A stretch of 64,000 nucleotides of DNA, from assembly GCA_963575745.1 (NCBI GenBank), contig CAUYUJ010000103.1:248001-312000 (forward strand), written 5' to 3'. Both the position numbers and the translations under genes were made by a program. The notes below the pieces were generated by a model, which saw only the letters and a list, made by a program, of their open reading frames with translations, ran no database searches and was not told the DNA's origin. Positions 5,828-58,304 of this stretch are shown in pieces. Origin of the DNA: Prorocentrum cordatum (Eukaryota). Within the stretch, counting starts at the first letter, position 1, and the number at the start of each line of letters is the position of its first letter.

Positions 5828-5990
5828 TTAGAAAAATTCTGAGCGACCCGATGTGGAGTTTAGAAAAATGCTAAGGCCACTTGGCTGTACTAAGAAACAA
5901 TATATAAAGATCAAGCACCTTAGAACAATTCTAACATCCACCTCAAGTACCTTAGAAAAAAATCAAACATTCACCTCAAGACGCTTAGAA
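5828..5990. repeat. Degenerate ~31-bp AT-rich repeat with phased TTAGAA motifs
   Basis: TTAGAA at 5828, 5860, 5920, 5952 and 5985, plus a variant CTAAGAA near 5890; one unit is the imperfect palindrome ttagaacaattctaa. Confidence 0.6.
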
Positions 5991-6388
5991 TTTTCCCAAT
6001 ATCCTCTTCTGTGAGCTTGGTATTTTCAAGGGTCAGACTGCCGTTGCCTTTCTGATCTTACAGCGTTTGGGAGGCCCCCGTGACATGGAATTCACTGTTC
6101 GGGATGCCGTGCGCCCCCTCCCTCACTCCCTTCCCCTCCATCCACCCCGACCTTCTCCTCCTCGACTCTTCCTCTCATATCCCTCAACGAGCACTCTTGG
6201 GCGCAGCGTTTCCTCGTTCCATCGGCATCTTTTCCCCCCTCCCCGCCCCCCCTGTCCTCCCCCCGTCCTCCTCCCACGCTCCTCCCTCGCAGTCGCCACG
6301 TCGAGGCTTTCTTGCACCTGCGGCAGCGCCAACATATCCCCTGCGGCGCGCACCAATGGTTCAACCCTGACCCCACAGGGCAATGCAT

Positions 6389-10601: not shown

Positions 10602-10622
10602 CTTTGAGCCCAAATGGCTACG
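10602..10622 (-). other. Relic dinoflagellate spliced leader
   Basis: The minus strand reads CGTAGCCATTTGGGCTCAAAG versus DinoSL DCCGTAGCCATTTTGGCTCAAG; it lies 17 nt upstream of, and in sense with, the transposase ATG. Confidence 0.85.
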
Positions 10623-21396: not shown

Positions 21397-21417
21397 CTTT
21401 GAGCCCAAATGGCTACG
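21397..21417 (-). other. Relic dinoflagellate spliced leader (duplicate copy)
   Basis: Same motif as 10602-10622, 17 nt upstream of ATG 21379. Confidence 0.85.
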
Positions 21418-22168: not shown

Positions 22169-25100
22169 CCCCCATCCCTCCCCCAACACACACGCACACC
22201 ACCGCCACGCAAACCGCTCCCACAACGCACACACACACACGCAGGGACGCGTGCACACCACCACAATACGCGCACGCACACACACGCACAGACACACGCG
22301 GACACACACACACACACACCCACGCACACACACACACGCACCTGCGCACCACCACCACCATCACCACACCGCCACCACCACGCACGCGCACACACGCACA
22401 CACACGCGCCCACCCACTCACCACACAGAGGCGCACGCGCGCACGCACCCGCACAAGCACGTATGCACCCACACACGCACGCACACGCACACACACACAT
22501 CAGGGACGCGCGCTGGCACATGCACGTTCGCACATACACGCGCAAACACGCACGCGCGCACACACACACTCACGCGCATGCGCGCACACGCGCGCCCCTC
22601 ACGCACACGCACACACACACGCGCACAACGCATGCACGCACGCGCGCACGCACGCACGCGCACCCCCCCCCCACCACCACCGCGCCCCCCCCATCACCAC
22701 GTCCCCCCCCCCCCACCACTACCACCCACTCTCATTATCCAGGGGGCCGCGAGATCTCGTCTGGTTGCGTGGCGTACAACTCCGCTGGATTGCCCAGGAG
22801 CTCACAGAAGTTGCGACAGTTGCGCCGTTGACAGCCCCCCCCCCCCCTCCCCCTCGCAATGCAAAGGCTCGTGGTCAAGTCTTGCCGGGCCCATGCTGCG
22901 TGTAACCCTGCCATGGTCTGAGCCATCCCTGCCTAGCTCAGCCGAGTCAGCCCAGTCTGAGCCAACTCGAATGCAATGGTCGTATAAGTGTGGGTGCCGA
23001 GTGTGCACGCAAAGGGCCCCACCGTTCGCTGTGCCTGAGGAAGATCTGTGGGCCAGTGTGTGTGTCCCGGGGTGGGGTGGGGAGGAGGGCGCTTGCGGGG
23101 CCCGAGTGATGTGTTCATTTGATTTTTTGTTTATTGGCTGGGCTCACGGTCCCAGCGCTGCAGGATTTCGGACGTCGGAGTCGCGCCCGGTCGCGCTTGA
23201 ATCGCATCGCCCCCCCCACCCCCCCCCACCCCCCCCCCCCCCCCCAGGGATGCGCGCGACGGGCCCTGCGCATCCAAGTCGCAGGCCACAGGCGGTCGCG
23301 AACTGGCCCAAGGGCCCCGCGTGGCACGCGCCAGGCGCGGCGTCGCAGGCCGCGAGGGCTCGCGTCTTACGCCCCGAGAGCTCGCGTCGGCGGGGCCACG
23401 CCTCGACCCCAAAGCGAAGAAACGTTCTAGACATCATCGTGGCATTCGTTTTCGCATACTTCCACGCGGTAGTCCTCGCAATCCCATCGCGGCGCCCTTC
23501 GTTCTTCCGTTCCCCTATCTGTTCCGCCCTGCCCCCGCTCGGCGATGGGCGCGTCGCCCAAAATTAATAATTTGCCGACGAAGAATTGTCAGGGATTTTC
23601 CAACATGGCCACTTGTGTTTTTCCATCCCAGGTCGCGGCAGAGCCAGGGGCGCGGCGCAGGCAGCGATCGCCAGTGGTCCCAGAGCATAGGGTCGAGCGC
23701 AACGTTCTCGAATAACGGACTGCGTGACGCCTCCGGCCGGGGGATGAGCGCACTGTCGCAAGATGGGCGGCCCCGAGAGCGTCGCAAAGCGACGGCCGAG
23801 GAAAAGCTCGCGCGCGACCAGTGGGGGGCCAAAATGGACAGGACAAGTGGGGGCGCCCGCGCAAACGGAGCGGCGGCCACATTTTCGCCGCCGCGCAGAA
23901 CATGAAGAAAAACGAAGCGCCTGGAGGACCCGGCGGTGGACAACGCGATGAATTCAAAGGGAAGGGGGAAGGAGGGGGAACCGAGTCAGTGCTGGAGGTT
24001 TGTTGCGACTGGCTCTCGCCGCCATGGAAGGGGTCGCCGGGGTGGCGGGGGGGGGGGCGGGCGGGGGGGGGGGCGCTCCTTGGCGCCCGCGGCGAGGGCA
24101 GCTGGCGCGCAGCGGCAGTCTCGATGGCGTCGGCGCCGCGGGCGGGGGCGGCGGTTTCGATGCCGCGCCTCCACGTGAGAGCGCATTTATAAACGCTTCC
24201 TCTGCGGCGGCTTACGCCCGCCCCTCGCGCGCGTTCCCATCGCGCCCCCCGGGGGAGGACACCGCGGGCAATGAGAATGTCGCCGGGCGACGCCTTCGCG
24301 TCTGACCCCAGGTGGGCAAGAGACAGAGAGCAGCGCGATGACGCGAATCGGGGCCTAGCTAACGACAAGGCTGCTAAAACGGAAGAAGACGCACGGCGTC
24401 TATGGACCAATTAGGAACGATGCTCAGACGGTGCCTTTTCCGACGCCTGCCGCGACTCGGAGGGCGATTGCGTCGCTGCGTCTGCGCGGAGAACCTTCGA
24501 CGCAACGTGCGTTAAACGAGCTGGCCCGGCTCGTCTGGGCCACGCGCGTTTTGTTATTCGCGCAGGGTGCGGATTTAATTTGATAGCTGCGCGCTTTCGA
24601 GAGCCCCGGCTAACAGACAGGATCAAGTCTTTGCGAACGCATATAACCCTCGACCCCGCTGGGGGGGCGAGCGCAGGCTCTCGGCGCCGTGAAAATCGCG
24701 AGCGATGAGCCGTGCGGGGGGAGCATTTGGGCCATTGTCATGCCGGACGCGGCGAGCGTGATATCGGTGGGTGAACTCTGCGTTGACCGCGACCACAGAT
24801 TCAACGCCGGCGGAGACCCGGCGGAGCCCCGCGCCTACTTCTACCAAGTGGAGGACGTCTTGACCTGACAGTGGATGGCAAGATCCCGTGCAGAACCATG
24901 GAAGGCAGAGGGGCCCTGGGTCAGGTAGACGAGGAATCTCCCGGGGGCCCGGCAGGGCTGGCGCGGTGGGCTTGCGTTGAGACTAGCGCGAAGATCTTCC
25001 TCGGCGATCCTGTGAAGGCGGGGGCCGTCCGCCCCAGGCGATCAGGCATCGCGCAACCTTTCAAATGCGCTCGCAAATGGCCATTGCCGAGGTCGCGCAT

Positions 25101-31020: not shown

Positions 31021-33399
31021 CAAACGCAACCTCCCCTTCCCGCGAGACGGGCGCCAGAGATGGACATCTGCCCGATGCAATCGCGCCCGCACTTGGCGCC
31101 GCGCGCAAGCGCGAGCGAACGGGGCGGAATCTGCGACCGCCGCGTTGGTAAGCGCCGCCCCGCGCGCACGACAAACGCCAAGTACAATCCCGACCCATCC
31201 TATAGCAATGACTGCTGCAACAAGGACCGGCCAACTCGAGATGACACATGGCGCGGTGGCAGCCCCCCCCCCGCCCCCCCCTCCCCACTCCGCCACCGCC
31301 CCACCGCGCGCGCGCGCACGCGCGCAAACCGCGCGCCCCCGCCGCCCCCCCCGCCACCACTTCGAGTGCGTACGTGCGCACACACATACAAACACCCACA
31401 CATGCGTGCATGCGCATGCATGCATGCTTGCATGCACGTACAATTATATATATATATATATACACGAATGTGTGTGTGCGCGTGTATATACACATGTACG
31501 TCTGTGTATAAAACTACGTATCTCCCCAAACAACACCCGCACTTAGCACCGCGACCACGCATGCACACCGCCACCGCCCACCCACGCACGCGCGCGCACC
31601 ACGCGCGCGCACGCAAACACGCCACGCGCACACACACACGCACGCGCGCACACACACGAACGCACGCGCACACACACGCGCCCCCCCATCCCTCCCCCAA
31701 CGCACACGCACACCACCGCCACGCAAACCGCTCCCACAACGCACACACACACACGCAGGGACGCGTGCACACCACCACAATACGCGCACGCACACACACG
31801 CACATACACACGCAGACACACACACCCACACACACACACCTGCGCACCACCGCCACCATCACCACGCCGCCACCACCACGCACGCGCACACACGCACACA
31901 CACACACACGCCCACCCACTCACCACACAGAGGCGCACGCGCGCACGCACCCGCGCAAGCACGCATGCACACACGCACGCACACGCACCCACACGCACAC
32001 ACACACACACATCAGGGACGCGCACTGGCACATGCACGCTCGCACATACACGCGCAAACACGCACGCACACACGCGCGCGCACACACGCGCGCGCACGCG
32101 CACGCGCATGCACGCACACGCACGCCCCTCACGCACACGCACATACACACACACACACACACGCGCACAACGCATGCACGCACGCGCGCACGCACGCACG
32201 CGCACTCCTCCCCACCACCACCGCGCCCCCTCCCATCACCACGTCCCCCCCCCACCACTACCACCCACTTTCATTATCCAGGGAACCGCGAGATCTCGTC
32301 TTGCTCGCGTGGCGTACAACTCCGCTGGACTACCCGGGAGCTTACAGAAGTTGCGACAGTTGCGCCGTTGACAGCCCCCCCCCGCCCCCCTCGCAATGCA
32401 AAGGCTCGTGGTCAAGTCTTACCAGGCCCATGCTGCGTGTAACCCTGTCATGGTCTAGGCCATCCCTGCCTAGCTCAGCCGAGTCAGCCCAGTCTGAGCC
32501 AACTCGAATGCAATGGCAAATTTGGGCCCGATGCCCCAAGGGCCCCCGTCGCATGCTTGAGAAGACGGCCCCGTGAGCCCCGGGGTGGGGTGGGGTGGAG
32601 GGCGCTTCGCGGGGCCCAGGAACTCGCGCCGCGGGCTTCGGTCCCTGGCGATTTCGGCCGTCGGAGTCGCGCGGCGCGCTTGGAATTCGCATCGCCCCCC
32701 CCCACCCCCCCCGCCCCAGGGATGCGCGTGAAGGGCCCTGAGCATCCAAGTCGCAGGCCACAGGTGGTCGCGAACTGGCCCCAGGGCCCCGCGTGGCAGG
32801 CCCCAGGCGCGGCGTCGCAGGCCGCGAGGGCTCGCGTCTTAAGCCCCGAGAGCTCGCGTCGGCGGGGTCATGCCTCGACCCCAAAGCGAAGAAACGTTCT
32901 AGACATCATCGTGGCATTCGTTTTCGCGTATTCCACGCGGTAGTCCTCGCAATCACATCGCGGCGCCCTTCGTTCTTCCGTTCCCCTATCTGTTCCGCCC
33001 CGCCCCCGCTCGGCGATGGGCGCGCCGCCCAAAATTAATAATTTGCCGACGAAGTATTGTTAAGGATCTTCCAACATGGCCACTTGTGTTTTTTCCATCC
33101 CAGGTCGCGGCAGAGCCAGGGGCGCGGCGCAGGCAGCGATCGCCAGTGGTCCCAGAGCATAGGGTCGAGCGCAACGTTCTCGAATAACGGACTGCGTGAC
33201 GCCTCCGGCCGGGGGATGAGCGCACTGTCGCAAGATGGGCGGCCCCGAGAGCGTCGCAAAGCGACGGCCGAGGAAAAGCTCGCGCGCGACCAGTGGGGGG
33301 CCAAAATGGACAGGACAAGTGGGGGCGCCCGCGCAAACGGAGCGGCGGCCACATTTTCGCCGCCGCGCAGAACATGAAGAAAAACGAAGCGCCTGGAGG

Positions 33400-38890: not shown

Positions 38891-39872
38891 AAGTTGTTTG
38901 TGTATATATATATAAATACATATGTATGCACATCTATATATGTATATACATACACATATACACATTCCAACCCCTGAAAGATTCTGCTGGTGACGGAGGC
39001 GGCGACGCCAGCAGGCCCTCTCACCAGGAACGCGCGCGGACCGTAGATGACCAGCGCGCTCCCGACTCCCATGTATTGTTGGAGGGTTTGCATGATTATA
39101 TTTTCATTGGCGGAACGTGTTCCTTGCCCGAAGGGCTCGTGAGCGAAGTGCAGATCCATATCCAAGACGTCCTCCACGACTGCGCAGACATGGCGCGTCT
39201 GGCGGCCGGGGTTCTGGCGCCGCATGGTTTGCGGTCTTGCGATGGCGACGGCGAGCTTCGCAGAGCACGCATGCATCACTACGGCGGCTTGTTCTGCTCA
39301 TCTGCGTTCCTGTTCGAGGGTCGGAGGATGGCGTTGAGGACTTCGCGTCGTTTTCAGGTATCGCCCGTGCCCTTTTTTTGCTGCCCTCTCGGCTGTGCGT
39401 TTTGTTTTCGTTTTCTCGTGGGCAGCTTGCTTTCTCTTTTTCGCTTTCCGGATTGCCTTTACTGTTCTGTCGATGTTATACGAAACAGCTGTAGTATTCC
39501 CACATGTATGATGCTCTGATGGTCATGTCTGCTTTTATATGTAATCGGATCAGCGTGCCTCTAACGGCGGGTTTCTTCCTCCTTCTCCTACTCTTCCTCT
39601 TCCTCCTGCTCCTTCTCGGCCCCCCCGGCCCCCCCCCTGCTCGCCCCCCCTCTTTCTTCGTCTACATGTAGGAAGAGGAGGGGGAAGAAGAGGGGGGCGA
39701 GGAGGAGGGGCGCAGACGATATGAATGGTGACAGGGATGCTACTAATAATGGTGGTATTATTTCCTGTTGTAACTAAGAAGAAGACTTATGCGAACACGA
39801 CGAATAATAGTTTTACGAACAAGACGACCGATGGGACACATAACGCGAATACTCACGCTACTAGTATTGTTC

Positions 39873-39959
39873 GTAGTAGTAGTAGTAGTAGTCGTAGTAG
39901 TCGTAGTAGTCGTAGTAGTCGTAGTAGTGTTAGTGTTAGTAGTAGTAGTAGTAGTAGTC

Positions 39960-40008
<49 letters not shown>

Positions 40009-40019
40009 TAGTAGTAGTA
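39873..40019. repeat. (AGT)n microsatellite
   Basis: Direct inspection. Confidence 0.95.
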
Positions 40020-40382
40020 CGATACATAGAAACACCAGCAAGCATCGTGGTCGCCATACTAAGAGTACTCACGCTCGTATTGCTTATCCGAGGGGTGCGG
40101 TCATAACGTATGGTACTACCTCCCATGTTAAGAACCGCCCTACCAGTAATACCACTGACAAGAACAGTATTGTCATCGCATGCGAATGCTATTGCCGATG
40201 CTGCGGCTGATGATATTGATGGAAATATTTGCAATCAGCTAACCACAACAACTGAATACCACTTCTAATGCTGCGCGTGCCGCAATGAATATGGCTAGTG
40301 AGAAGAACCCGGCTACTGGGAACATTTTGAATGCGAAATATACGATCATTTTTAAGCATGTGGGGAGGATGCCGCAAACAAC

Positions 40383-40820
40383 AGGAGGAGGGAGGGAGGG
40401 GAAGGGCGACGAGGAGGAGGGGGGGGGGAGGAGGAGGAAGAGGAGAGAGAGGATGAGGAGGAGGAGGAGGAGGAGGAGGAGGAGGAGGGGGCGGAGGAGG
40501 AGGAGGCGGAGGAGGAGGAGGAGAAGAGGGGGGGGAGGGGCAGGAGGAGGAGGAGGAGGAGGTGGAGGAGGATGAGGAGGAGGAGGAGGAGGAGAAGGAG
40601 GGGGGGGCAGGAGGAGGGGAGGACGGGGAGAAGGAGGAGGAGAAGGAGGAAGAGAAGGAGGAGGAAAAGGAGGAGGGGGGGGGAGGAGGGGGGGGGGAGG
40701 GGGCGGGAGGAAGAGGGGGGGGGAGGAGGAGGAAGAGGGGGGGGAGGAGGAGGATGTGAGGAGGAGGATGTAGAGGAGGAGGGCGAGGACGGGGAAGAGG
40801 AGGAGGAGGGGGGGCAGAGG
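40383..40820. repeat. (GGA)n/purine-rich low-complexity tract, the target of the LTR element; continues at 50814-50985
   Basis: The same composition is seen on both sides of the LTR element. Confidence 0.85.
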
Positions 40821-40825
40821 GCGAG

Positions 40826-41001
40826 TGTGAATGCGTGCCATATTTTCACCGACAGGTTTAGCTAGTGGACGTATATCCTTGATTTGCGGTAGTGTGTGTA
40901 CTATCGTTCGTACTGTTGCATGCGCAGGACAGTGCGAGTGCACCGTGGTTCGCACGTTGGCTCAAGTCTAAAAACCTTTGACTGCCGCTGCTGCTGCCGC
41001 A
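40826..41001 (+). repeat. 5' LTR
   Basis: tgtgaatgcg...gctgccgca; 10 substitutions versus the 3' LTR by manual count. Confidence 0.96.
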
Positions 41002-41003
41002 GT

Positions 41004-41020
41004 TGGTAGCGGAGCGGTGG
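41004..41020 (+). promoter_or_regulatory. Primer-binding site, probably initiator Met tRNA
   Basis: TGGTAGCGGAG starts 2 nt after the LTR and resembles the TGGTAGCAGAG complement of eukaryotic tRNA-iMet 3' ends. Confidence 0.8.
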
Positions 41021-41135
41021 AAGCCTCGGGGCCAGGGGTTCCCTGACTGCGCGCCAGCATGGCGAGCGGCACGGGAGCTCGGCGGCTCTGAGGCGACCTC
41101 CGCGCCGAGCAGGCCGATTGGCGCGGTTCCACGGC

Positions 41136-44100
41136 ATGACAGGGGAAGAGGACAAGAGCGGCGAGGGGTTCGCCGGGGCGGTGATCACTGGGCCAGAGGG
41201 ACAGCCGAGTGCAGCCACCGCGGGCTTGACGACCGAGCAGCTGAAGGAGATGATCGCCGGAGTAGTCAGGGAGACTATGCAGTCGGCGACCGCTTCGAGA
41301 GCAGCCGCGCCATGCCAACCAGGGGAAGGAACTCGGGATCCTCGGTCAGCAGCAGCGGGCAACATCAAGAAGGATCCCAACGACAAGAACGAGAAGGACG
41401 GCAACATGAAGGACAACGAGCTCGACCAGGATCAGGTCGACGCCAACTGGGCCAGCGACGGCTGGAGCCGCGATGACGGCTGGGGCTGGCACAACTCCTC
41501 GGGCTCATCAGGCAGAGGAGACTTCTCCGACCCGCCAGCATGGCCAGGCTGGAGTCACTACAGGCAGCGGCGCGAAGCTCTGACGCGCTGGGACACAAAC
41601 ACCGACGTACAAGTGTGGCGCAGAGCAGAGAAGTTCCTCAAGTTATTCGATTGGGGCATGCAAGCCAAGTTCGAGGATATCCCAGAGGCAACCCTCAGCA
41701 GCAACAAGTGGCTCGAGACGGTGATTGGTCGCATGGACATGATGATTGGAGAACGAGAAGGGGGCCATCTCCGTCGCACAGGACGCAACGCACTGTTCGA
41801 AGCTAGTCGTGATCCAAAAGAGACTCTCATCCAGTTCGTCAGTCGAAGGGAGGCTCAACTTCAAGAAGCCGAGGGTCACGACATGTGGTTATCATCCAAG
41901 CTGAAGGGACTTCTACTCGAGGAGGGGGCTGGGCTCACGCCTCAAGGCCTCCAAAACTTGCGCGCTCTCACGCGGGGGCAGCTCGACTATGAGAGCGTTT
42001 CGTGGGCGCTGAGGCAGATGGGCTCCACTGGCGCTGAGCGCCTGTTGCCTGGCCGAGTTTCTCTAGGCACAATGCACGTTGCCGGCGGCGCTGAGGACGA
42101 AGAGCCCAGTGCCGACGGCATGCATAAGCATCAGCCCTACTCCTCCACTCCCTCCGGTGGTTTCAACGGTGCTGCCGACGAGGACTTGGAGGATCTCGAT
42201 GAAGAGACTGACGACGAGGAAGAAGAATATGATCAGATGGATGAGGCAGCTATCATGGCAGAACTGGAGGATCTCGACCTCTACGAGGATCAGGTCGACG
42301 AGGCGCTAGCAGCCATCGCCACGCGCCCAGTCAACAGGACCTGGAAGCAGAACAAAGACATCAAGCGTGCAGCAAAGAAGGACCGCGAATACTTTGGAGG
42401 TCGTGCTCGAGCATCCGAGGCCAACGTCCCGCCACCACCTCGGCTCTCACCTCAGGCCCGTCGAGACGATCGCGGGCGAGGACGTGGGGGCCGGGGCAGA
42501 GGGCGTGACCGGGACCAGAGGCCAAGGAGGTTTACCAAGCTGACTTTGGAGCAGCGCATGAAGGTTACCAAGTGCAAGCTTTGCCACCATAAGGGCCACT
42601 GGGCTCGAGAGTGTCCTACCAACAACGGCGGCAGCAGGACAGACAGGCAGAAGCTCTCGGCCTACACCTTCACCGGAGGAGTGTTTCTCGAGGGCAAGTC
42701 GGTCACCCAGGAGGCGATCGAGGACTGGGAGGAGATCGAGGAAGAGCTCAACCAGGACGATGCCTTCATTGTCACGCGCCCGGTGCAGGGCCTGGTCGAC
42801 CCCGGGGCGGGCAGCGACCTGGTGGGGGTGAATGCTCTCAACCGGGAAGCTCGTGCCCTAGCAGAGGTCGGGCTCAGGTACGTGGAGGTGCCAGCCGACC
42901 TCCGTCGACCACGTGCCGCTCGCGGAGTCGGGGGGGCTGCAAGAGTAGCGAGCGCTGTTCTTTTTCCCATCTGCGTGGCAGGAGTGCTTGGGATCGTCGA
43001 GACAACAGTGCTCGCCGAAGAAGTTCCACATATTCTCAGCGTGAATCTTCTGGATTTCCTGGGCTGCGTGATAGATTTGCCGAGCAATGTCACGCAGTCG
43101 TCTCGGTTGGGCGCAGAGATCCCGGTGACGAAGCTGGGGTCCGGCCACAGGATGGTAGATATCATCCAGAAGTTGTCGGATTCAGTCGTGCCCCAGTCCG
43201 CTCTCGAGAGTTCTCCGTATCTGACTCCAGATGCTATTCAATACAAGAAGGGACCTGTGCAGGTGATGTCTGTCAAGGGGCAGATCAAGAGTTACATGGT
43301 CACCTCCCTCATCCTAGCCCTTATCACGATCAGCATCATCCAGGCCCTAAGGGGCCACAACAACACCATCAAGGGTAAGAACAGGTCCGTGAGGGCCATG
43401 CACAAGCGGATCAACTGCAACGGGCATCTCGGGAAGATCAGGCAGGGCGTCGTCATAGGGGCCCTGATCGGCCTCATCGGGAAGTACGAGTCTAGGGCTC
43501 AGCAGGCCTCGATCGCTAGATCACATCAGTCAACTAAGGACATCGTCAGGCTCCACAAGAGACCAAGGACCAACCGGGGGGCCAGGAGCAGTCAGCATAA
43601 CCAAACCAACAACAGCAGCAGAGTCTTGGGGCTGGTAGCATCCGTAGCCACTTTTGGCTCGAGCCTTTTCAACTCTCAGCGATCTCCGAGACGTGCCGCA
43701 CACCGAGTGGCAAGACAATTCGCATTCAGCAGCAATCGAGACGATGCACCTAGTCGTTGCTGCAGCGGTGCTGGCTGTTGTTATGACAGCAGAGGCGGGT
43801 CCCAAGAAGAAGCCAGCGGCTCAGGAGCTGAACGAGGAGAGGCTCAGACAATTACGTGGAGCAGCTCAGACCGAGACTGGACCCGGTGGCGGGGGCGCTC
43901 CCGACACGTCCGCAGACGAGAGCGCAGTTGGAGCCGCTATCCAGGCGGGACTGCTACCCACCATGCACGAGGCGACGGCAGCTACGTTGCCGGGGACGGC
44001 CACTGCCCAGGCGGCTGCGGCGGCAGCGACGACTCTTCCGACCGTGCCCGGTCCGCCCATGTCATTCGGACCAGGCGGGGCCGCAGCGGCAGCGGCCGCT

Positions 44101-44789
44101 CACACAGCTGCCCCAGGTCAGCCCGGGGCTTTCAGTCCCTACGGTTGGGCGCCCATCAAGCCACCACCGAAGCCAGCAGTAAAGCCTCCTCCGAAGCCAT
44201 TTCCATATCCACAGACGACGGGCTGTCCCGGTGCTTCCGAGTCGGAGGAGGATCCAACGATTCAAGTACCAGACGGGCCATGCAGCTGTCCTCAGGGCCC
44301 AACTCTGAAGTACTACGGAAACCAGTACGGATGGGGATCCAAGTGTCGGAGGTGCAACCGCCGCCCTCAGTGGATCCCGCGCGGCGAAGTCCACCCTCCG
44401 GGAGACCGTCCCGAGTCAGCGGCCGAGGCAGCCAGGCGGGCAGCCGAGTCAGCGGGCCGCGCAGTGGAGATGCTGCAGAACAGTCCGCAGTTCATCGAGG
44501 GCTCGGCAGCACTGAACACGGTGAATGGGCTATACTCGCTACTTCAAACCCTACAATGGCAGCTACACGACCTGCCGGAGGGTGTCAAGGCCATGAAGGG
44601 GATACAGTCGGTGGTGGACCAGATGATCGAGTACGCTACTCAACAGCAGCCCCTCATGACCAGCCAGGTCGAGGGGCCTGCAGCAGATCTACCAGAGCGT
44701 CACTCACATCCGCCGAAGCCTGGGAACCTTCGAGGTGCTGGGGGACACTGTCGACTCAATCCATGAGAGCGTCGGGCGCATCCAGGTAG
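41136..44789 (+). CDS. gag: Gag-protease polyprotein frame
   Basis: DPPAWPG gag N-terminal motif, CCHC knuckle CKLCHHKGHWAREC (42573-42614), aspartic protease LVDPGAG (D at 42798) and PHILSVNLLDFLG; the frame stays open through the overlapped region. Confidence 0.88.
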   Translation: MTGEEDKSGEGFAGAVITGPEGQPSAATAGLTTEQLKEMIAGVVRETMQSATASRAAAPCQPGEGTRDPRSAAAGNIKKDPNDKNEKDGNMKDNELDQDQVDANWASDGWSRDDGWGWHNSSGSSGRGDFSDPPAWPGWSHYRQRREALTRWDTNTDVQVWRRAEKFLKLFDWGMQAKFEDIPEATLSSNKWLETVIGRMDMMIGEREGGHLRRTGRNALFEASRDPKETLIQFVSRREAQLQEAEGHDMWLSSKLKGLLLEEGAGLTPQGLQNLRALTRGQLDYESVSWALRQMGSTGAERLLPGRVSLGTMHVAGGAEDEEPSADGMHKHQPYSSTPSGGFNGAADEDLEDLDEETDDEEEEYDQMDEAAIMAELEDLDLYEDQVDEALAAIATRPVNRTWKQNKDIKRAAKKDREYFGGRARASEANVPPPPRLSPQARRDDRGRGRGGRGRGRDRDQRPRRFTKLTLEQRMKVTKCKLCHHKGHWARECPTNNGGSRTDRQKLSAYTFTGGVFLEGKSVTQEAIEDWEEIEEELNQDDAFIVTRPVQGLVDPGAGSDLVGVNALNREARALAEVGLRYVEVPADLRRPRAARGVGGAARVASAVLFPICVAGVLGIVETTVLAEEVPHILSVNLLDFLGCVIDLPSNVTQSSRLGAEIPVTKLGSGHRMVDIIQKLSDSVVPQSALESSPYLTPDAIQYKKGPVQVMSVKGQIKSYMVTSLILALITISIIQALRGHNNTIKGKNRSVRAMHKRINCNGHLGKIRQGVVIGALIGLIGKYESRAQQASIARSHQSTKDIVRLHKRPRTNRGARSSQHNQTNNSSRVLGLVASVATFGSSLFNSQRSPRRAAHRVARQFAFSSNRDDAPSRCCSGAGCCYDSRGGSQEEASGSGAERGEAQTITWSSSDRDWTRWRGRSRHVRRRERSWSRYPGGTATHHARGDGSYVAGDGHCPGGCGGSDDSSDRARSAHVIRTRRGRSGSGRSHSCPRSARGFQSLRLGAHQATTEASSKASSEAISISTDDGLSRCFRVGGGSNDSSTRRAMQLSSGPNSEVLRKPVRMGIQVSEVQPPPSVDPARRSPPSGRPSRVSGRGSQAGSRVSGPRSGDAAEQSAVHRGLGSTEHGEWAILATSNPTMAATRPAGGCQGHEGDTVGGGPDDRVRYSTAAPHDQPGRGACSRSTRASLTSAEAWEPSRCWGTLSTQSMRASGASR

Positions 44790-45136
44790 AGGTGTCCAAC
44801 ACCAACCAAGCGATCAACCAGCTGGTCCAGATGACTGTTCAGATCGGGACAGCAGTGCAGGGCATTGTGAACTACCTCAACATGAACATCCAGAGTCAGG
44901 GCCAGGCGCTGATGAACACCACAGGGTCTCCAGGAGCGAGTGGGAGCGGACTTCCACCGCCGCCCTCGCCGGAGCACTCTCCGCCCAACTCGGACCTGCG
45001 CAGCCAGGACACCACGACGGCGGGCGAGGACTCGAGCCCGCAGACTACGACGCCACCGCCGCCCCAGGAGATGGACCACCAGGCGGGCGCCGAGACGTCC
45101 ACGACTCCGGGGGCGAGCTTGTGGGAGCTAGTGTGA
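43744..45136 (+). pseudogene. Overlapping extra ORF nested in pol: signal-peptide-like start, Ala/Pro linker, Cys motif, long coiled coil; one +1 G frameshift at ~44673-44676
   Basis: MHLVVAAAVLAVVMTAEA, CSCPQG...GNQYGWGSKCRRC, a heptad-like stretch, and the C-terminus SLWELV*; joins track ORFs 43654-44766 and 44735-45136. Confidence 0.65.
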
Positions 45137-45580
45137 GCAGCCAGCTCTGCCTTGCATGTCCGGGCCTCGAGGGAGGCTCGACAGTTTTCCGAGCTGGGCC
45201 TAGTAGCCAGCTACTCGAGCAGTGCCCACTTAACAGTTCGAGAGAGAACCTCGGGTTCCTCTCACTTCCATGCCTTTCCGTCATGTTGCTATTCAGTCGG
45301 GCCTCAGAGAGACCGAGCTGCCCTCGTGGCCACGGCCGGATCTAAAGGGTTGCAGGAGAAGACCGACCCTCCTCCCAGGTCGTCGGCGATACCAGACAGT
45401 TGTAGAGTACTCTGGAATGATGGGGATTGCACTAACGACGACCACGAAGTGGCGTGGACGAGCACCGTCAGGGCGGCTATCGAGCGAGGAGCAGCTGCTG
45501 GGTCCCTCAGTCGAGGGGGAGACTGGACTCAGTCGAGGCCAGCCGGGGCGATCAGGGCCAAGGCCAAGGGTCGCGCGTCG

Positions 45581-46210
45581 TTCTTGGAGATCTTTTCCCC
45601 CCCAAGGATTGCCCCTGAAATCGAACGCAAGGGGGGCGCCCTCGGCGAGAGACCAAGTCTCGACCGACTGACTGGATGGGACTCGTCGAGGCCGAGTCAC
45701 GTGAGGGATCTCTGGACGCAGATCGAACAGGAAGAACCGGAGACGATCTGGATGTCATCGGAGTGTCGGGTCTTTTCCGCGATCAATCGAATCAATTGCG
45801 ATTGTCGAGACCCCGATCGATGGCATTGCGAGGTGATGGAGGGCCTTAGGGACCTTGTCTTATGTATGGGGGTGGCGCAGCACCAACAAGCTAAGGGACA
45901 GTACTTCGCCTTCGAGCACCCTCTGTATGCTAGCTCGTGGGGTTCCCACGTGGTTCAACATGTCATGGATCTCCCAGGGGTCAAGCGTCTGCGGGTGGAT
46001 ATGTGTAGGTTTGGGCTCCAAGTGGACTCCAGAGGCCTAAATAAGAAACCAACCGGCATCCTCACCAACCATCCCCATCTGCAGAAGCTTCTCAGTGGGC
46101 ATCTGCGTGTTGGAGACCACAGACATGCCGCGCTGGAGGGGAGCCATCAGACTTCGAGGGCCGCCCGATACACCCCTAGATTCGTTAAGCTGGTTGCCCG
46201 AGCGGTGACC
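45581..46210 (+). CDS. Cytosine-5 DNA methyltransferase-like domain within pol
   Basis: FLEIFS (motif I-like), LDRLTGWD, WMSSEC (motif IV Cys at 45764), FEHP (motif VI), VDMCRFG, KKPT, AARYTPRF (motif X-like). Confidence 0.8.
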
Positions 46211-46432
46211 GAGCATTGGAGCGGCGCGTCAGCTGGCGCTAGGCCCACCTGGGCTGAGTTCGGCGAGGACTCCTTTCCGGCGGAAGCGGAGGAAGGCAGC
46301 GGCCCACGCTTGGAGCCGACTGCGGAAGCCGAAGAAGGAAGCGACGCCGACAGCGGAGATGAGCCAGAGACCCGGGTTCCCCAGGATGCCAAGGGCACCC
46401 CTCAGGACGAGATGGACCCGTCGGAGGAAGAC

Positions 46433-48392
46433 GAGGCTTTTGTGCAAAGTCCATGTCAATATGGGCCATCCCGAGACCCGTCGTTTCTGTCGAGTTCCGA
46501 GAGCCGGGGGGGTCAAGCGCCACCTGATAAGATGGGCCAGGAACAGTTTCCGCTGTGCCGAGTGCGAGGAGCATCGACGAGCGGGCAACCACCGCCGGGT
46601 GGCTCTTCCTAGGACCTTTCGTTTCAACCACATTGTGGGCATCGACCTGTTCTATTTGGATTTCCAAGGGGTCTCGCATCCGTCCATCAACGTGGTCGAC
46701 CACGGATCCAATCTTCAGGTCTGTTGCAGGGTCGCGAATGCTAGGGCCGCCACTGTCTGGGCTGGTTTTGCGCAATGCTGGTTGAGGCCACTAGGCGCTC
46801 CTCATTTTATGATTTCCGACGGAGGTTCTGAGTTCGGAGAACGTTTCGCTCGAGGGTTAGAGCAATGGGGGGTGAAGCACCATGTGTGCGACGCGGACTC
46901 ACCCTGGCAAAACGGGAAGGTTGAACGCCATGGGGGTTGGATCAAAGACCGTGTGAAGGCTGAGCTCGACGCCGGAGCTCATCCGCCAGGGGATCTGGAA
47001 GAGCTGGACACGCTCGTTCACGAGCTCACCGCCCATAAGAATCGATATTGGCACAGAGGAGGGTTCTCGCCACTTCAGCTCGTGTTCGGAGAAAACCCAA
47101 GACTCCCACACGACCTTTTAAGCGACGATTCTTACGGTCTCCCAGGCTGGGAAGACACCCTCCGACCTTCCTCCGAGCAGGATGCGGCCGGTGCTGAGTT
47201 CGCCAGGGCCCAGCAGATCAGGGCCTCTGCTCGCGACCTAGCTATGCGAGCCATGGCCCACGAGAAGATAAGCCGTGCCTCGAGGGCCCGGGGCCCCGCT
47301 CCCAGGGAGTTCTTGCCAGGACAATGGGTCTACGTGTGGAGACACATGACTAGGTCCTCGTCTCGAGCGGATGCTCTTGGCCGGCGTCGTGACGGATGGT
47401 GTGGTCCCGGGGCCGTGGTGCTTGCTCAGGGCGGGACTGTCTGGGTGGCGGTGCGAGCGCGTTTGTGGAAGTGCTCGGCCGAGCAGCTGCGTCTCGCATG
47501 TGCTGATGAGGAGCTGGGGGTGCAGTTGACACAGAGTCCTCAATGGCGGGAACTGCTAAGACAGTCGGCCACCCGTCGAGCCACCGCTGTGGATGTGCAG
47601 CGAGAGGGCCCACCACCAGAGGATGCGTGGGACGACCAGGTCAGGGGGGATATGGATCCAGCCCCTCAGGTGCCAGGTCAACCCGAGCTATCGCCAGAGG
47701 CTAGTCGTCCCGCCCCAGCGGTCCCAGTTCCTTCGTTTTCCCCAGGGGCTTCGATTCCCGACTCCGGGGTTCGCCGCGTTCCCGAGGGTCCCAGGGCCGA
47801 GGAGCGAGGGCCAAATTCCGAGGCCGGATCGGCAGAAGCCCAAGCCGGGTCGGAGAGGACCAGGTTCCCATCTAACGACCTCTCCCGTCAGTCCTCGGAA
47901 GCTCATGGTTCCAGGGAAGGAGTAGAGAGAGTTGAGCCTCCGATCCCTGCCCCGGATCCCTCCGCCTCTCCTTCTCCGGTTGCTGCTACTCCTCCTTCCG
48001 TTTCTGTGCCTCCCGCTCCTCCTCCCCCTTCTCATCCTCCTCTTCTTCCTCGTTTTCAAGAGGAACCGATGTCAGAAGGGGCGGCTGGGGGATCTCGGAT
48101 GACCAGCGTTCCTCCCAGACCCAGGGCGCGCCTGGCGCAGCCCGAGGACGTGCCGGCATGCATCCGACGTGCCAGGTTTGAGGCCCCACCGGAAGTGAAA
48201 AGACCAAGGATTGGGTCCCCACCTCCTGGCCTTGCGACTGCCCCTCCCGTCTCGTCTGGTCCTTCCTCCTCTTCCCACCCCTTGCCTTCCTCTTCCGAAG
48301 CTGGAGCGTCGCCCGTCGTGAGAGAGGAGGAGCCGGCCAGACAGGTGCAGTCGGGCCGGCTGGAACCTCGAAGACCAGTCAGCCAGGCCTAG
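46433..48392 (+). CDS. Integrase (HHCC + DDE) and Pro-rich linker
   Basis: HVNMGHP...CAEC, GIDLF, ISDGGSEF, SPWQNGKVERHGG. There is a frameshift relative to the DNMT frame near 46432, and a stop inside a 31-bp duplication (48383-48413 / 48414-48444). Confidence 0.92.
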
Positions 48393-48413
48393 CGCGACCA
48401 CCCGCTAGAGGCA

Positions 48414-50520
48414 CCAGGCCTAGCGCGACCACCCGCTAGAGGCAGGAGTCGTTCGCCCGCAGGAGAAGCCGCTGACTTTCTCATCTTCCCAGGGGAGGTT
48501 GGCGACGGTGTCCAGGCCAGGCTCCTGGACCCAGGAGTTTTCGAGGATTCCGAGGTTTTTGCCACCGGTAGGGGAGGGGGGGGTTCTCTGAAAAATCTGT
48601 CACCAGCCGAGAGGGAGAAGTTCGCCGCCTCCGACTCCAAGGAGTGGGAAGCGATGCTAGGCACGGGAGCCGTCGAGATCATTTCCCCGGCGAAGGCGGA
48701 AGTTGTGCGGAAGCTGCACTCAGATCGGATCATTTCTAGCAGAATGGTCCGACGATGGAAGCCGGTGGAAGGAACGTTCAAGGACCCCGATGCTCAATCA
48801 CGATGGTGTGTTCATGGGCACAGGGACCCCGATTCAGGAGCTTTGGCGGTCTATGCCCCAACACCGCAAACGTCGAGTATCATGATGTTTCTGCAGGTGG
48901 TCATGAACCTGGGTTTATTCGCCGACATTGCCGATGTTAAAAATGCGTTCTGTCAGTCCGACCCCATGTCCCGCACCCAGGGCCAAATCTTCGTGGAACC
49001 CTGCGAAGGAAACAGACTTCCCCCAGGTTCCTTGATTCTCTTAAAGGTGAATGTTTACGGACTTGACGACGCTTTCATGGCCTGGAGAAAGACGGTCGTC
49101 AGCTTCTTGGAGCGTCACGGTTTTACGCGTTCCCTGTTGGAACCCTGCTGGTGGATACGATATGGACCAAACGGCAGTGTTCGGAACATGATGCTTCTAG
49201 AAGTTGACGACTTCTTTATTGGGAGTGCTACGACCGAGGACCGCGAGCGAGTGTCTCAGGGACCGACTGGAATCGAGATTCAAGTTCGGGAAATACCGCG
49301 ACTGTGGCGCCGGACCGGTGGACTTTGCAGGACGTCGAATCACCGTCGGGCCCAAACGTGCTGCAGTAGATATGGGAAAGTATATGTTGGAGGAGATTCG
49401 ACCGTTGTCCGTGGCACGAGGTAGGTTGTCGCACAAAGATGCTCCACTTGAACCCTCTGAGTTCCGTGCTTTGAGATCTCTAGTGTATAAGTTCAACTGG
49501 CTCGGGCGCGAGGTTCGTCCAGAGGCAGCCGGAGTGGCGAGTATTTTGACAAGTCGCCTGAAGGCGGCAACCACCAGAGACATCATCATCGCCAATAAGC
49601 TCGTTCGCCATCTGCGATCATCAGCATTCAGGGGCATTACTGTATGTAAGCTGGACCCAGATAAACTGGCTTTTGTATCATTTTCAGATGCAGGGGGCGC
49701 GGGCGCTTTCGGGGATATGATGGGCGAGAAGGGCCTCCCCGAGGATCCTTCCCGAGGGGCGTGGATGGTTCTCGCTTGTGACCAAGCTATTCTAGATAAC
49801 AAGGCTGTTAAGGCGTCTATCCTCGGCTGGAGGAGCTCAAAGCTCCGTAGGAAGGTGCCCTCTACGTTAGCAGGGGAAACACAAGCCCTGTCTGCCGCTG
49901 TAGCAGAAATAGAACTTCTTCAGATTTTATATCGAGATGTTGTTTTTAATGATGTCCATGTTCGAGACCATCATAGGGGATCTGGGCCGTTCACTACTGT
50001 TTTACGCCGGGACTGCCGTCTGGGATCTAGAGAGAAGCAGGTGCACGTTGTAGATGCCAAGTCTATTTATGACACGATGATGAAGGAAGGAAATGCTAGC
50101 GCAAAAGATAGAAGGACGGCCATCGACCTAGCTATAATCTGCGAGGCTCTAGAACGTGCTAGAGGTAGAGTTCGTTGGATACCACGCGGCAGGATGCCAG
50201 TTGACTCGTTGACCAAGGATGACGTTACCAAGTGTAACGCAGCACTGTTCGACCTCATGGCCAGCGGGAGATTGATCCTCATAGACGAAGGGTCAGAAGT
50301 CGAGTGGAGACGAGAGCAGCCAGGCCTGAAGAATCGTTCCCAAGCCGCCTCCCGGAAGGAGTTGAATCAGGCCGAGATGATTTCTTGGAGTGAGTTCTTC
50401 TCGAGCTTCTCCGAGGACTCGATCGGCAGCGGTGGTGGTGGTTGTCTCTCTCCCCTCCTTTTCCCTTCTTGTCCTCAACCTCCTGCCCCGGTGCCGGACA
50501 CCACAGAGGTGTTCCAGTGA
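48414..50520 (+). pseudogene. pol: Copia reverse transcriptase and RNase H
   Basis: ADVKNAFCQ, VYGLDDA, LEVDDFF; FSDAG, STLAGETQAL, VVDAKSIYD, MPVDSLTK. A 4-nt duplication causes a frameshift near 49245-49251. Confidence 0.93.
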
Positions 50521-50637: not shown

Positions 50638-50813
50638 TGTGAATGCGTGCCACATTTTCACCGGCAGGTTTAGCTAGTGGACGTATATCCTTGATTTGCT
50701 GTAGTGTGTGTACTATCCTTTGTACTGTTGCATACGCAGGACAGTGTGAGTGCACCGTGGTTCGCACGTTGGTTCAAGTCTAAAAACCTGTGACTGCCGC
50801 TGCTGCTGCCACA
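50638..50813 (+). repeat. 3' LTR
   Basis: tgtgaatgcg...gctgccaca, 176 bp. Confidence 0.96.
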
Positions 50814-51211
50814 CGAGGAGGGGGAGGACGAGGTTGAGGAGGGCGAGGGGCAGGAGCAGGGGGGCCAGGAGGAGGAGGAGGAAGGAGGGATGAAAGGAAG
50901 GAGAAGGGGGGGAGGGGGGAGAAGGAGGGAGGGGGGGAAGGATGGAGGGAAGGCGCGGGAGGACCAGGAGGAGGAGGTGGAGGATTAATAATCAGGACAA
51001 TATCAACGAGGCGACGCATCATAATTTTAATCGTCGTAACAAGAACATATATAGTAATGCGAATTGTAAGAATACGACGAAGGCGAATGCTAATGAACAG
51101 TGTGCTACTGATAAAAACAAAACTAATAATAAGACGAGACGAACGATGAGATTACGACTGGTAATAGTATTGGCACTTATACAACCAGAAGAAACGTCAC
51201 ACTAAAACGAA

Positions 51212-55200: not shown

Positions 55201-57586
55201 TGCTGACCTCCAGGCACGCCCCAGCGGGCACTTCTCTACGAGTCGGTGACTTGGGCGGGCGCGGTATCATGGCAACGTCGACGACGGCAGACACGAGGAT
55301 GATCGGAGCGACGTTTGTGGCGATGATGACGACGGCGACGGCGCGGCCACCGACGGCACCGATGCTGATTATGCCGGCGATGATGACGGCGTCGTCGCGT
55401 CGGCGATGAAGCTTGCGGAAGAAGTTCGACTCGCGCGCGCGGCCGACGCGCGAGAGCGGCTCGCATGGTGCTATTTGACGCGGATCGCGCCCCCCCCAGC
55501 GCGCGCGCGCGCAAAGGCGTTCGAATGATGTCGGCATGCGGCGCGACGGGCCTGCTTGGCCGAATGTGATGGACATGTCGAGGAACCGATGGTTCATTGG
55601 AGAATTCGCAAGAGCGCGAGCGCAGCGTTCGATTCTGAAATATCTATGGGATCTGAGAGGTATTTGAAGAATTCCGGCATGCGCGCGCGACGACGCGAGC
55701 GCAAAGGATTTTTGGGACAGCGCACGCAGGGGCGTTCAAACGATTTCGACGCGCGCGCGGTAGGGCCATTTCGTTAGATTTTACCAAGATGTTGGATTTT
55801 TTGTGGGCATCCAAAATTGCAAGAGCGCGAGCGCCACTGTTTTTCAACATTCTTCTTGCGAAACCATGCGTTGTCCGTGTTTCGGGGCACCTGATTTTGA
55901 CAGTTCTGCGGGACCTAAGGTTTTTGAAGGGTTTCGGCATGCGCGTGCGACGACGTGCGCGCGTGCACTTCGTGTTGTTATTTGTTGCAAAGGGCTTTTG
56001 GACAGTTTAGGAGTTATGATAAACGAGTGCGCGCGCATAGTATTTTCGCCAGAGGGTGAGAGGGGAACCGCTGCCGGTTTGGATGGGATGGTACGAGTTC
56101 ACAGTTATGATTGGTGAGGGGCAAGATCATCTGTAAATCGTAATGCGGAAAAAAAGGGGGCGGTTAAATCGGGGGGGGGGGGGGCATGCCTTTCCAAAGT
56201 GGATAAGTAATTATGAACAAGACTTTCGGTCTACCTTGCTCGCGCAGTCATCCGACCCACCTACCCGCAATTATGTTTGCAAAACTCATGCGGCGGCGAT
56301 TGCGGTGAATGCTTGGTGTTGGCGGGTGCCTCTTTGCAGCCGCGCGAGCCCGCGCGTGCTCGTGCGCGCACCGGCCAGCTACTTTGGCGCGACCGACGCG
56401 GCCGCGGTTGCGCTGGCCGCTGGGCGCTTCCAGCGCGCCTCGCAGTCCGCGCTGACGCGCGGGGAGTTCAGTGCGATTGCGAGTCGGTAACTTGGGCGGG
56501 CGCGATCATATGGCGACGCCGGCAACGGTAAACATGATAATACCCGTAGCGATGAAGCCGACGATGATGACGTTTACGACGGCAAGGCCAAGCAAACCGC
56601 CGATGATCCTCACGCCGATGGCGATGCGGATGCCTTCGCATCGATGATGCAGATTTGGGAAAGATTTTGAAATTTGCGCCTTCACGGCAGATGCGCGCTA
56701 GTGGCCCGGGATCGTGCCTCCCCCCCAGAACGCGCGCAAGGGCGTTCGAATGTTTTCAACATGCGCGCGCGAAGGGCTCGTTATTAGCAATAACGGTTCG
56801 GGTCAGTCGGGAAATTGCGGCATGCGTGCGCGACGATTCGCGCGTGTGCCTGTCGTCTCATATTTCCCATATTTCGCGTGCGCTTGTCGTCCCATATATG
56901 AACGAATGTGTGCGCATATTGTTCTGTGCGGAGGATGGTGGGGTCGGGGGCGGTATCAATTTGGTTGGATTGATATGAGTTCGTGTTTATGATTCGCACA
57001 GGAACATGCTCATATGTAGGTTGCAGATCCCCTTGGACGGGAGATACACCTTGGGTGTGGGGGGCGGTTGATCCGAATCCCTTTTTCCTGGGACGAAAAA
57101 TTCGCGGGCGTCCCCATCGCGTATGACCACCTCCGACACCGTCAAGTTATTATTTGGCCGCAAACTGACATTTGGCGAAGGTGCCGCGCCAAAATGCCTT
57201 GCACACACATCTCATGTTGGCATCTTTTTGTTTGGCGGGGGCGCTGAGCGTTTTTACCCCCGCTAGCGAAAACAACACTGGTTGTTTATGTTGGCACTGG
57301 CGTGGTCGGAAATTGCCCAGCAACGAAAACGCAGCATCGGATTGTCCGCGCGCCCGCATCAGTGCGCACGCTTGTTTCTGGCGTTATGGATGTCATTCGG
57401 GCCCACTTTACTTGCAGTCGCATGTATGTAAACTTGCCAGGGTTCAAGGACATCCCCTGGTTGGGCTCTACGGCTGGTGCCCTATTGTGGGCGCCCTATG
57501 GCGTGTGCCCTAACATGTCCGTCGGTTGGTGCCTGATGGTCGGAGGTGCGGGGCTGCTGCCATGCAGTTGTATTCGTTTTAGCGTC

Positions 57587-57589
<3 letters not shown>

Positions 57590-57634
<45 letters not shown>

Positions 57635-57819
57635 CGTAGTCGTAGTCGTAGTCGTAGTCGTAGTCGTAGTCGTAGTCGTAGTCGTAGTCGTAGTCGTAGT
57701 CGTAGTCGTAGTCGTAGTCGTAGTCGTAGTCGTAGTCGTAGTCGTAGTCGTAGTAGTCGTAGTCGTAGTCGTAGTAGTCGTAGTCGTAGTCGTGTCGTAG
57801 TCGTAGTAGTCGTAGTCGT

Positions 57820-57851
<32 letters not shown>

Positions 57852-57995
57852 TAGTAGTAGTAGTAGTAGTCGTCGTAGTCGTCGTAGTAGTAGTAGTAGT
57901 AGTAGTAGTGTAGTCGTAGTCGTCGTAGTAGTCGTAGTAGTCGTAGTAATAGTAGTAGTGGTAGTAGTAGTAGTAGTAGTCGTAGTGGTAGTAGC

Positions 57996-58030
<35 letters not shown>

Positions 58031-58089
58031 TAGTCGTAGTCGTAGTCGTAGTCGTAGTCGTAATTGTAGAAGAAGTAGTACTAGTAGTC

Positions 58090-58123
<34 letters not shown>

Positions 58124-58215
58124 CAGTAGTAGTAGTAGTAGTCGTAGTAGTGGTCGTCGTAGTAGTAGTAGTAGTAGTAGTAGTTGTTGTAGTATTAGTA
58201 GTAGTAGTCGTCGTC

Positions 58216-58246
<31 letters not shown>

Positions 58247-58273
58247 TCGTAGTACTAGTACTAGTACTAGTAC

Positions 58274-58304
<31 letters not shown>

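Follow-up and report, generated by a model that had tools for sequence, protein, structure and literature searches.

In hepadnaviruses the envelope (PreS/S) open reading frame (ORF) is fully nested in the polymerase ORF, according to PMC5604429. We identified a comparable arrangement in a 64,000-nucleotide stretch of DNA from the dinoflagellate Prorocentrum cordatum (GenBank assembly GCA_963575745.1, contig CAUYUJ010000103.1, positions 248,001 to 312,000 of the forward strand), which is referred to here as the window and in whose coordinates all positions are given. The window contains a copia-type long terminal repeat (LTR) retrotransposon, and inside its pol reading frame lies a second long frame, here called X, which, judging from its homologs, encodes a real, conserved protein. 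A relict of the dinoflagellate spliced leader (DinoSL) precedes X within pol. The arrangement resembles a hepadnavirus-type envelope-in-polymerase overlap combined with the relict-leader mark of dinoflagellates.

The correspondence with PreS/S is that a gene of about 1.1-1.4 kb lies wholly inside the replicase ORF of a reverse-transcribing element, in another frame, and that the overlap sits on a tolerant spacer between enzyme domains. There are also several differences. X belongs to a protist's LTR retrotransposon and not to a virus. It is positioned between protease and integrase, unlike PreS/S, and it does not have the transmembrane set of the S protein of hepatitis B virus (HBV). Unlike in the hepadnaviral overlap, it is the nested gene that looks better constrained and gene-like, and pol that looks like filler. 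The HBV envelope gene is expressed from its own shorter mRNA, and we infer such an mRNA for X.

Some copia- and gypsy-type LTR elements carry env-like ORFs, which follow pol without overlap. Like these extra ORFs, X encodes an accessory protein that combines a hydrophobic N-terminus with a coiled coil. Unlike them, it is overprinted on pol in a different frame, and its product lacks a C-terminal anchor.

The third point of comparison is the spliced leader (SL). The canonical dinoflagellate leader is 22 nt long (DCCGTAGCCATTTTGGCTCAAG), and relict copies of it are a hallmark of retroposed (reverse-transcribed) mRNAs; PMC5585692, from which this is taken, adds that conservation of the relicts is highest 50-100 bp ahead of start codons and that an AG inside them can act as a new trans-splice acceptor. 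The relict preceding X is like those of retroposed dinoflagellate genes ('mRNA recycling', PMC5585692; Slamovits and Keeling 2008, cited there) in being a near-complete leader 81-102 nt upstream of a start codon, which is about the best-conserved range, and in ending with AG. Unlike the relicts of those genes, it lies inside the coding sequence of a retrotransposon polyprotein, where it is read in the pol frame, and not before a free-standing gene.

The X reading frame and its homologs

X begins in window frame 1, which is open from 43648 to 44766 on the plus strand with its first ATG at 43744, and continues past a frame break near 44673 in frame 2, which is open from 44660 to 45136. The first piece (43744-44673, 310 codons) encodes a hydrophobic N-terminus, a disordered Ala/Pro/Gly stretch, a C-x-C/H...C-x-x-C motif and the start of a series of heptad helices. 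The second piece (44675-45136, 153 codons followed by a TGA at 45134-45136) encodes the remaining heptad helices, a disordered Ser/Thr/Pro/acidic tail and an LWELV end. A first-pass annotation, made by a model from the sequence alone, had pointed out that two frames stay open together here. That observation stands and X is real, but the details given for the frameshift and for a TGA in pol were wrong, as described below. As it described, the translation of the nested frame begins with MHLVVAAAVLAVVMTAEA, includes PCSCPQGPTLKYYGNQYGWGSKCRRC and has LWELV as its last residues before the stop.

When the first piece of X was compared exhaustively with 1.84 billion representative proteins by HMMER, 11 matched at E <= 0.001 and five of these at E <= 1e-10. 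The best has an E-value of 1.3e-29 and 52% identity. The relatives of X are 40-59% identical and keep the frame open. Eight of the 11 homologs were looked up; six are peptides in EukProt data that carry the label Pyramimonas sp. CCMP1952, and the remaining two, with lengths of 420 and 168 residues, are gene models of P. cordatum. No relative was found when X was compared only with proteins of nearly equal length, the true relatives being shorter or having too few common words. Seven homologs reach the break near 44673, and six of these read across it uninterrupted (Q-V/L-E/Q-E-G-L/M...). The second piece of X aligns with their continuation past the break.

The window is rich in G+C (0.55-0.74 across most of its length), and this composition produces long spurious ORFs throughout. 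X could on these grounds be a chance ORF with no second gene present. However, the homologs refute this explanation, which we give almost no credence: their alignments, at E-values down to 1.3e-29, cross the frameshift of the window, the Cys and helix motifs are conserved, and the helical region has heptad periodicity. The proposal that an accessory protein is overprinted on pol, downstream of the protease and ahead of the domain that follows, is in agreement with the homologs and with the coding-type composition of the X frame.

Features of the predicted X protein

Two conserved blocks are recognizable among the relatives. The first is a Cys/His motif, C-x-C/H-P...YYGNxxGxGSxCxxC...W-x-P-R-G, which is probably zinc-binding. 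The Cys residues are kept in the window and in the relatives P0003 and P0005, and the CxxC is lost in relative P0012. The second is a helical block, AAEAAR...AALNTVN...LQWQL...PEG. An AlphaFold2 model based on 12 sequences has a mean predicted local distance difference test (pLDDT) score of 58.4, with a helix at residues 2-16, disorder across approximately residues 40-175, and helices at residues 226-309 (pLDDT 71-86). The heptad helices span about 170 residues. The excess at heptad a/d positions in their two halves was reached by 0 of 200 and 1 of 200 shuffles, and the flanks show none. The modelled helices and this excess in both halves bear out the heptad-like helix that had been noticed in the first pass.

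The five most hydrophobic 15-residue windows of X all begin at residues 1-5, and a second hydrophobic segment is lacking. KKK comes directly after the hydrophobic N-terminus, which also occurs in a close relative, P0004 (87% identity). An env-like protein had been suggested, and both heptads and an N-terminal hydrophobic helix are present. However, there is no C-terminal anchor and the fold matches are generic helical ones, which does not sustain the suggestion. The missing second hydrophobic segment and a cytosol-type Cys/His knuckle behind the putative signal peptide both count against an Env-like fusion protein.

The C-terminal WELV of X is aligned with WEIL in relative P0013 and VEML in P0012, giving an aromatic residue in two of the three sequences that reach the C-terminus. 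The core of Atg8-binding motifs (LC3-interacting region or Atg8-interacting motif) is [W/F/Y]-x-x-[L/I/V]. We regard WELV as a candidate motif of this type, and as a lead.

Searches beyond the direct homologs returned only general helical similarity. A PDB profile search with X found only coiled coils (best E 4e-4), Foldseek, run with the X model on the PDB, found nothing at E <= 0.001, the best result of a VIA-align wide search with the model (Z 6.5) was to generic helical hairpins, and a search of the ESM Atlas with X gave no usable match. X, which is without family assignment, would extend the range of accessory proteins carried by LTR elements with a new family.

Frame breaks and sister contigs

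In the window the pol frame is read on the plus strand in four pieces. The first (41010-44673, frame 0) is stop-free and encodes gag, protease, a post-protease stretch and a low-complexity spacer over X. The second (44674-45145, frame 1) has a sole stop, the TGA at 44764-44766. The third (45146-46432, frame 2), also stop-free, encodes a linker and then an unclassified domain at approximately 45560-46130, and the fourth (46434-48389, frame 0) encodes the integrase and a long tail. Without correction, the gag-protease frame 0 is open from 41010 to 44789, and frame 0 is open again from 46209 to 48392.

Sister contigs were obtained from four public runs (X1, X2 and X3 among them), whose library type is unrecorded, by alignment to 41000-47500 with a minimum likeness of 80%; joints seen in single contigs with short sides were left aside. 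Of the sampled words of 43200-45400, 63% occur in one public run and 5-14% in three metagenome runs. Over X, the long contigs share 95-99% identity with the window and, apart from the breaks described here, contain no gaps. At the first break (44673-44674) a 'GA' is missing in the window that is present in contigs of runs X1 (depth 11.2/11.2) and X2 (4/6.38), and both X and pol are shifted by +1. The homologs of X hold one extra Glu at this point (QVEEGLQQ). Because the sister contigs carry GA and the homologs one more Glu, the break in X is a 2-base deletion after 44673 and not, as had been thought, one extra G at ~44673-44676. At the second break (45145-45146) an 'AG' present in X1 (11.2/11.2) and X3 (3.54/3.54) is missing. 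The third, behind 46432, lacks an 'AA' found in an X1 contig, which joins the integrase piece to the previous piece.

All three repaired breaks (44673, 45145 and 46432) are 2-base gaps and fall within 1.8 kb of each other, which is odd for random decay. Three gaps of equal size could be an artefact of assembly or polishing.

The TGA at 44764 is, from the contigs, private to the window copy. Both X1 and X2 have a T>G change at 44764 that converts TGA to GGA in pol and CAT (His) to CAG (Gln) in X, and the stop is not, as first described, synonymous in the nested frame. That annotation was correct that the pol frame past the first break has a single stop, this TGA, but the frame does not simply run on to 45345, as the AG behind 45145 in X1 and X3 shifts it. 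Two sister contigs, X1 record 5 and X3 record 23, keep the stop codon of X (TGA). None of the seven listed differences within X creates a stop in either the X or the pol frame.

Read piecewise rather than from a joined sequence, 41010-44673 (frame 0), 44674-45145 (frame 1) and 45146-46432 (frame 2) contain the single stop at 44764, and with the sister-contig differences the piecewise pol frames are stop-free from 41010 to 48389. By these differences the gag-protease frame runs into the frames of the next domain and then of the integrase. Intact copies would thus have a single ORF that starts with gag and reaches the end of the integrase or beyond, with the 464-codon X lying wholly in its +1 frame.

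Coding signal and stop avoidance in the two frames

The G+C content by codon position is 0.70/0.58/0.66 in X, with the lowest value at position 2 as in the other genes of the element, and 0.62/0.71/0.59 in the part of the pol frame that overlaps X. When codon usage is scored as log-odds with the other domains as training set, the scores favor frame 0 up to ~43590, the X frame from 43680 to 44850, and the frame of the next domain from ~45300. The pol coding signal ends ~50 nt ahead of the leader and returns ~150 nt past the X stop. The pol-frame translation over X consists of 15% Gly, 14% Ser, 12% Arg, 10% Ala and 8% Pro, for a total of 59%. We read this part of pol as a spacer that needs only to stay open.

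It could also be that only the X frame is translated, and that the open pol frame is an accident of G+C content. A cassette comprising the leader, X and its flanks (~43640-45250) would then be cis-spliced from the pol mRNA, or pol would be made in some other way. The lack of coding-type composition in the pol frame over X speaks for this explanation, and long open off-frames without a gene do occur in the element, an example being the 261 codons at 42593-43378; the protease control below points in the same direction. However, in the sister copies the pol domains on either side are in precisely the frame that has no stop across the cassette. An accident needs the right phase (1 in 3) as well as no stop over ~464 codons, where 5-14 are expected by the null and the third frame has 17. 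We consider translation of X alone unlikely. The open frame at 42593-43378 (plus strand, frame 2) has no Met and overlaps the protease in its +2 frame, and there is no sign of a gene in it.

Over the two pieces of X, the third frame contains 10 + 7 stops and the pol frame 0 + 1, the latter falling to 0 in the sister copies. The number expected in the pol frame is 7.9 + 1.9 by permutation of synonymous codons and 10.0 + 4.2 by a context-dependent model. Both nulls predict too many stops elsewhere (gag, 13 against 22.7-26.9 expected; protease, 0 against 6.3-7.8 expected), and we set them aside as the main argument because off-frame stops are over-predicted across the whole element. As a control for dinucleotide bias, T-ending codons were compared before stop-forming next codons (those starting AA, AG or GA) and before other codons starting with A or G. 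In X, taking both pieces, the counts are 1/83 and 23/195 (Fisher p = 0.0016). The first 310 codons give 0/52 and 18/134 (Fisher p = 0.0019), and the pooled downstream domains 65/447 and 120/639 (p = 0.04). The protease control is equally strong, and the stop-avoidance statistic is therefore not specific. Stop avoidance over X beyond chance is suggestive. The topological argument is stronger: the flanking domains are in phase with the sole frame that stays free of stops across the 1.4 kb of another gene.

A relict spliced leader upstream of X

The relict DinoSL is located at 43642-43663 on the plus strand. Of the 21 leader bases searched for, 20 are matched, the differences being an A>G change and an additional C. 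The relict ends in AG and is translated as spacer in the pol frame. Its end is 81 nt and its start 102 nt upstream of the ATG of X. This is the first ATG after the relict, and the sequence between 43398 and 43744 is free of ATG in any frame. Only three SL-like sites of score 17 are present in the 64 kb, including this one, and no shuffle reached the match. The relict lies within the distance by which DinoSL retroposition is recognized in PMC5585692, namely a relict of the 22-nt leader no more than 500 nt upstream of an ORF.

At some time, the sequence suggests, an RNA beginning with the leader at 43642-43663 was copied into the element. We read the relict as the record of a trans-spliced subgenomic mRNA, and the relict fits the SL-capped RNA starting just upstream of 43744 that the first-pass annotation had proposed. 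No poly(A) remnant is seen in the sequence behind X, so that the subgenomic-RNA reading fits better than capture of a complete foreign mRNA.

In a related explanation X is a passenger, an SL-bearing mRNA of the host or of another element that was copied by template switching into the pol of one lineage and does not serve the element. The relict leader is itself a published hallmark of retroposed mRNAs (PMC5585692). It is also the X frame and not the pol frame that has gene-like composition, and the pol coding signal halts shortly before the leader and restarts soon after the X stop, at the distances given above. The missing poly(A) remnant argues against a passenger, as do the relatives of X, which are few (11), include no named cellular protein, and at 40-59% identity keep X open. 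The pol frame would have had to be, or to become, stop-free over the insert. A capture origin would moreover be compatible with present use by the element. Overall we find it improbable that X is a passenger.

Ty1-type elements use +1 frameshifting, and ribosomes could reach X in the same way from pol. The product would be a Gag-protease-X fusion ending at the X stop, which would lower the output of integrase and reverse transcriptase. Relative to pol, X occupies the +1 frame, which is open from 43648, 32 codons ahead of the ATG. However, no shift site was recognized by eye in 43648-43760, X has its own ATG that is well placed behind the relict leader, and no Rfam family matches within the element at E <= 0.1. 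This route to X appears very improbable.

The other two SL-like sites with a score of 17 (of 21) are identical and lie on the minus strand at 10604-10622 and 21399-21417, ~10.8 kb apart. Both sit in a large tandem duplication in the left half of the window, and these leader relicts suggest that there are retroposed genes in that region. Tandem segmental duplications of ~9.5-10.8 kb include 3586-8000 versus 14278-18574 and 23618-23917 versus 33090-33389, with blocks that are 97-100% identical.

The host element

By its sequence the element is a Ty1/copia-type LTR retrotransposon, since the integrase precedes RVT_2 as in the Ty1/copia order. The 5' LTR (40826-41001, +) and the 3' LTR (50638-50813, +) are each 176 nt in length with TG...CA ends, and are 94% identical by a blastn self-match. 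A CGAG at 40822-40825 is repeated at 50814-50817, outside both LTRs, and the pair is likely a 4-nt target-site duplication. A primer-binding-site-like sequence, TGGTAGCGGAGC, is found at 41004-41015 (+), 2 nt past the 5' LTR, and may resemble the initiator-tRNA primer sites of copia elements.

The first Met of gag is at 41136 (+), and a CCHC knuckle at 42573-42614 scores 19.4 bits with zf-CCHC_2, under the cut-off of 27. A protease-like DPGAGS at 42798-42815 (+) was read in translation as a D-x-G-A motif; the Pfam scan gave no match to a protease family in this region. The rve core of the integrase is located at ~46629-46904 (+; E 6.5e-05, 23.6 bits, under the cut-off of 32.6). The reverse transcriptase and the presumed RNase H part occupy 48393-50520 (+), with an RVT_2 match at 48705-49232 that is above the cut-off (E 2.7e-10, 40.7 bits against 31.6). 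An additional +1 shift between 49201 and 49424 breaks this part. An in-frame TAG at 48390-48392 alone parts the integrase tail from the reverse transcriptase, which is in the same frame. The TAG may be leaky, or else a mutation private to this copy.

The successive parts of the element, from gag to a further ORF that follows RVT_2, are in window frames 0, 1, 2, 2, 0, 0 and 1. The window copy is dead, given these shifted frames, the in-frame TAG and the 6% divergence between the LTRs. No GNRA-hairpin arrays with stems of at least 5 pairs were found in the element. Low-complexity arrays of triplet type flank the element at 39770-40860 and 57490-58300; they are G/A-rich on one strand and have poly-Pro, Ser and Glu frames.

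The unclassified domain downstream of X

The conserved domain that follows X in pol (~45560-46130, +, frame 2) contains SFLEIFSPPRIAPE ... ECRVFSAINRIN ... YFAFEHPLYASSWGS ... NKKPTG. It has one relative, with 61% identity across 56% of the query. The first-pass annotation had labelled it DNMT, a DNA methyltransferase. This label is at most tentative, with no Pfam match at E <= 0.01 and no PDB sequence match at E <= 10. The nearest Pfam-bearing cluster in the ESM Atlas is PF00145 (DNA_methylase), at 0.85 with 162 shared features, which is under the guide values and a lead only. A fold model of the domain has a pLDDT of 40.6, too poor for a fold search. The 'ECRVFS' and 'FEHP' of the domain faintly resemble the PCQ and ENV motifs of C5 DNA methyltransferases. 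DNMT domains are present in LINE- and DIRS-type elements of Symbiodinium, where the abundant Copia superfamily is without any, according to De Mendoza et al. 2018 (PMC5890265).

A model for X and its implications

We favor, with somewhat more confidence than an even chance would give, the explanation that this is a dead copia-type copy whose family carries a true nested gene, X, in the +1 frame of a pol spacer. In intact copies one ORF would encode gag, protease, a spacer of ~600 codons, the unclassified domain and integrase, followed by reverse transcriptase and RNase H. Ribosomes making integrase and reverse transcriptase would translate the Gly/Ser/Arg filler over X as a flexible tether. 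Trans-splicing of the element transcript at the relict site would yield a subgenomic mRNA whose first AUG is that of X. Template switching between the subgenomic and the full-length RNA would then have written the leader into the element through reverse transcription.

Several observations weigh against this explanation. It is just as possible that the relict leader stems from a captured host mRNA and not from a subgenomic RNA of the element. In the tail of X (44850-45120) the codon-usage log-odds of the pol frame are marginally above those of the X frame. The protease region avoids stops to the same degree as X (0/48 against 12/84, p = 0.003). A search of proteins of 671-2137 residues gave no relative of the pol-frame spacer (residues 913-1221 of the frame-0 ORF). 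For X and its relatives, the matches in Pfam are all under the cut-offs and are spread over unrelated coiled-coil families. The hydrophobic N-terminal helix that was first described as signal-like is present in the AlphaFold2 model of X, but it is not conserved in P0012, the only full-length relative. The sister contigs, being 95-99% identical, may include the same locus and are no test of long-term conservation of the pol frame. No diverged DNA copy was found; in metagenome contigs the 598 pattern matches to one alignment gave no relative, and the 294 to an alignment of the domain after X likewise gave none.

As to the function of X, our guess, to which we give distinctly less than an even chance, is that it is an oligomeric zinc-knuckle adaptor of the particles or RNA of the element, possibly tethered to membranes by its N-terminus. 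The knuckle would bind nucleic acid or particle proteins and the heptad region would assemble the oligomer.

More generally, we tentatively propose that the copia elements of dinoflagellates routinely keep accessory genes within a dispensable spacer of pol, in its +1 frame, and that SL trans-splicing of the element's own transcript serves to express them, although we hold this broader proposal to be rather less than an even prospect. The leader relict would then be a subgenomic mRNA recycled by the element's own reverse transcriptase, the arrangement would be a counterpart of the hepadnaviral overlap, and X would be a new oligomeric factor that is possibly membrane-tethered or engaged with autophagy. 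Nested genes are a textbook feature of compact viruses, and are not expected in retrotransposons of genomes with ample space. In a non-exhaustive literature search that included PMC5776459 we found neither a gene nested in another frame within the pol of an LTR retrotransposon nor a relict leader inside a copia pol. PMC5585692 describes direct evidence for a link between copia elements and mRNA retroposition as still lacking. If the proposal is true, a dinoflagellate mobile element exploits the trans-splicing of its host to obtain a subgenomic mRNA, and its reverse transcriptase copies subgenomic RNAs back into the element. This would provide a testable link between copia elements and the massive retroposition of mRNAs in dinoflagellate genomes.

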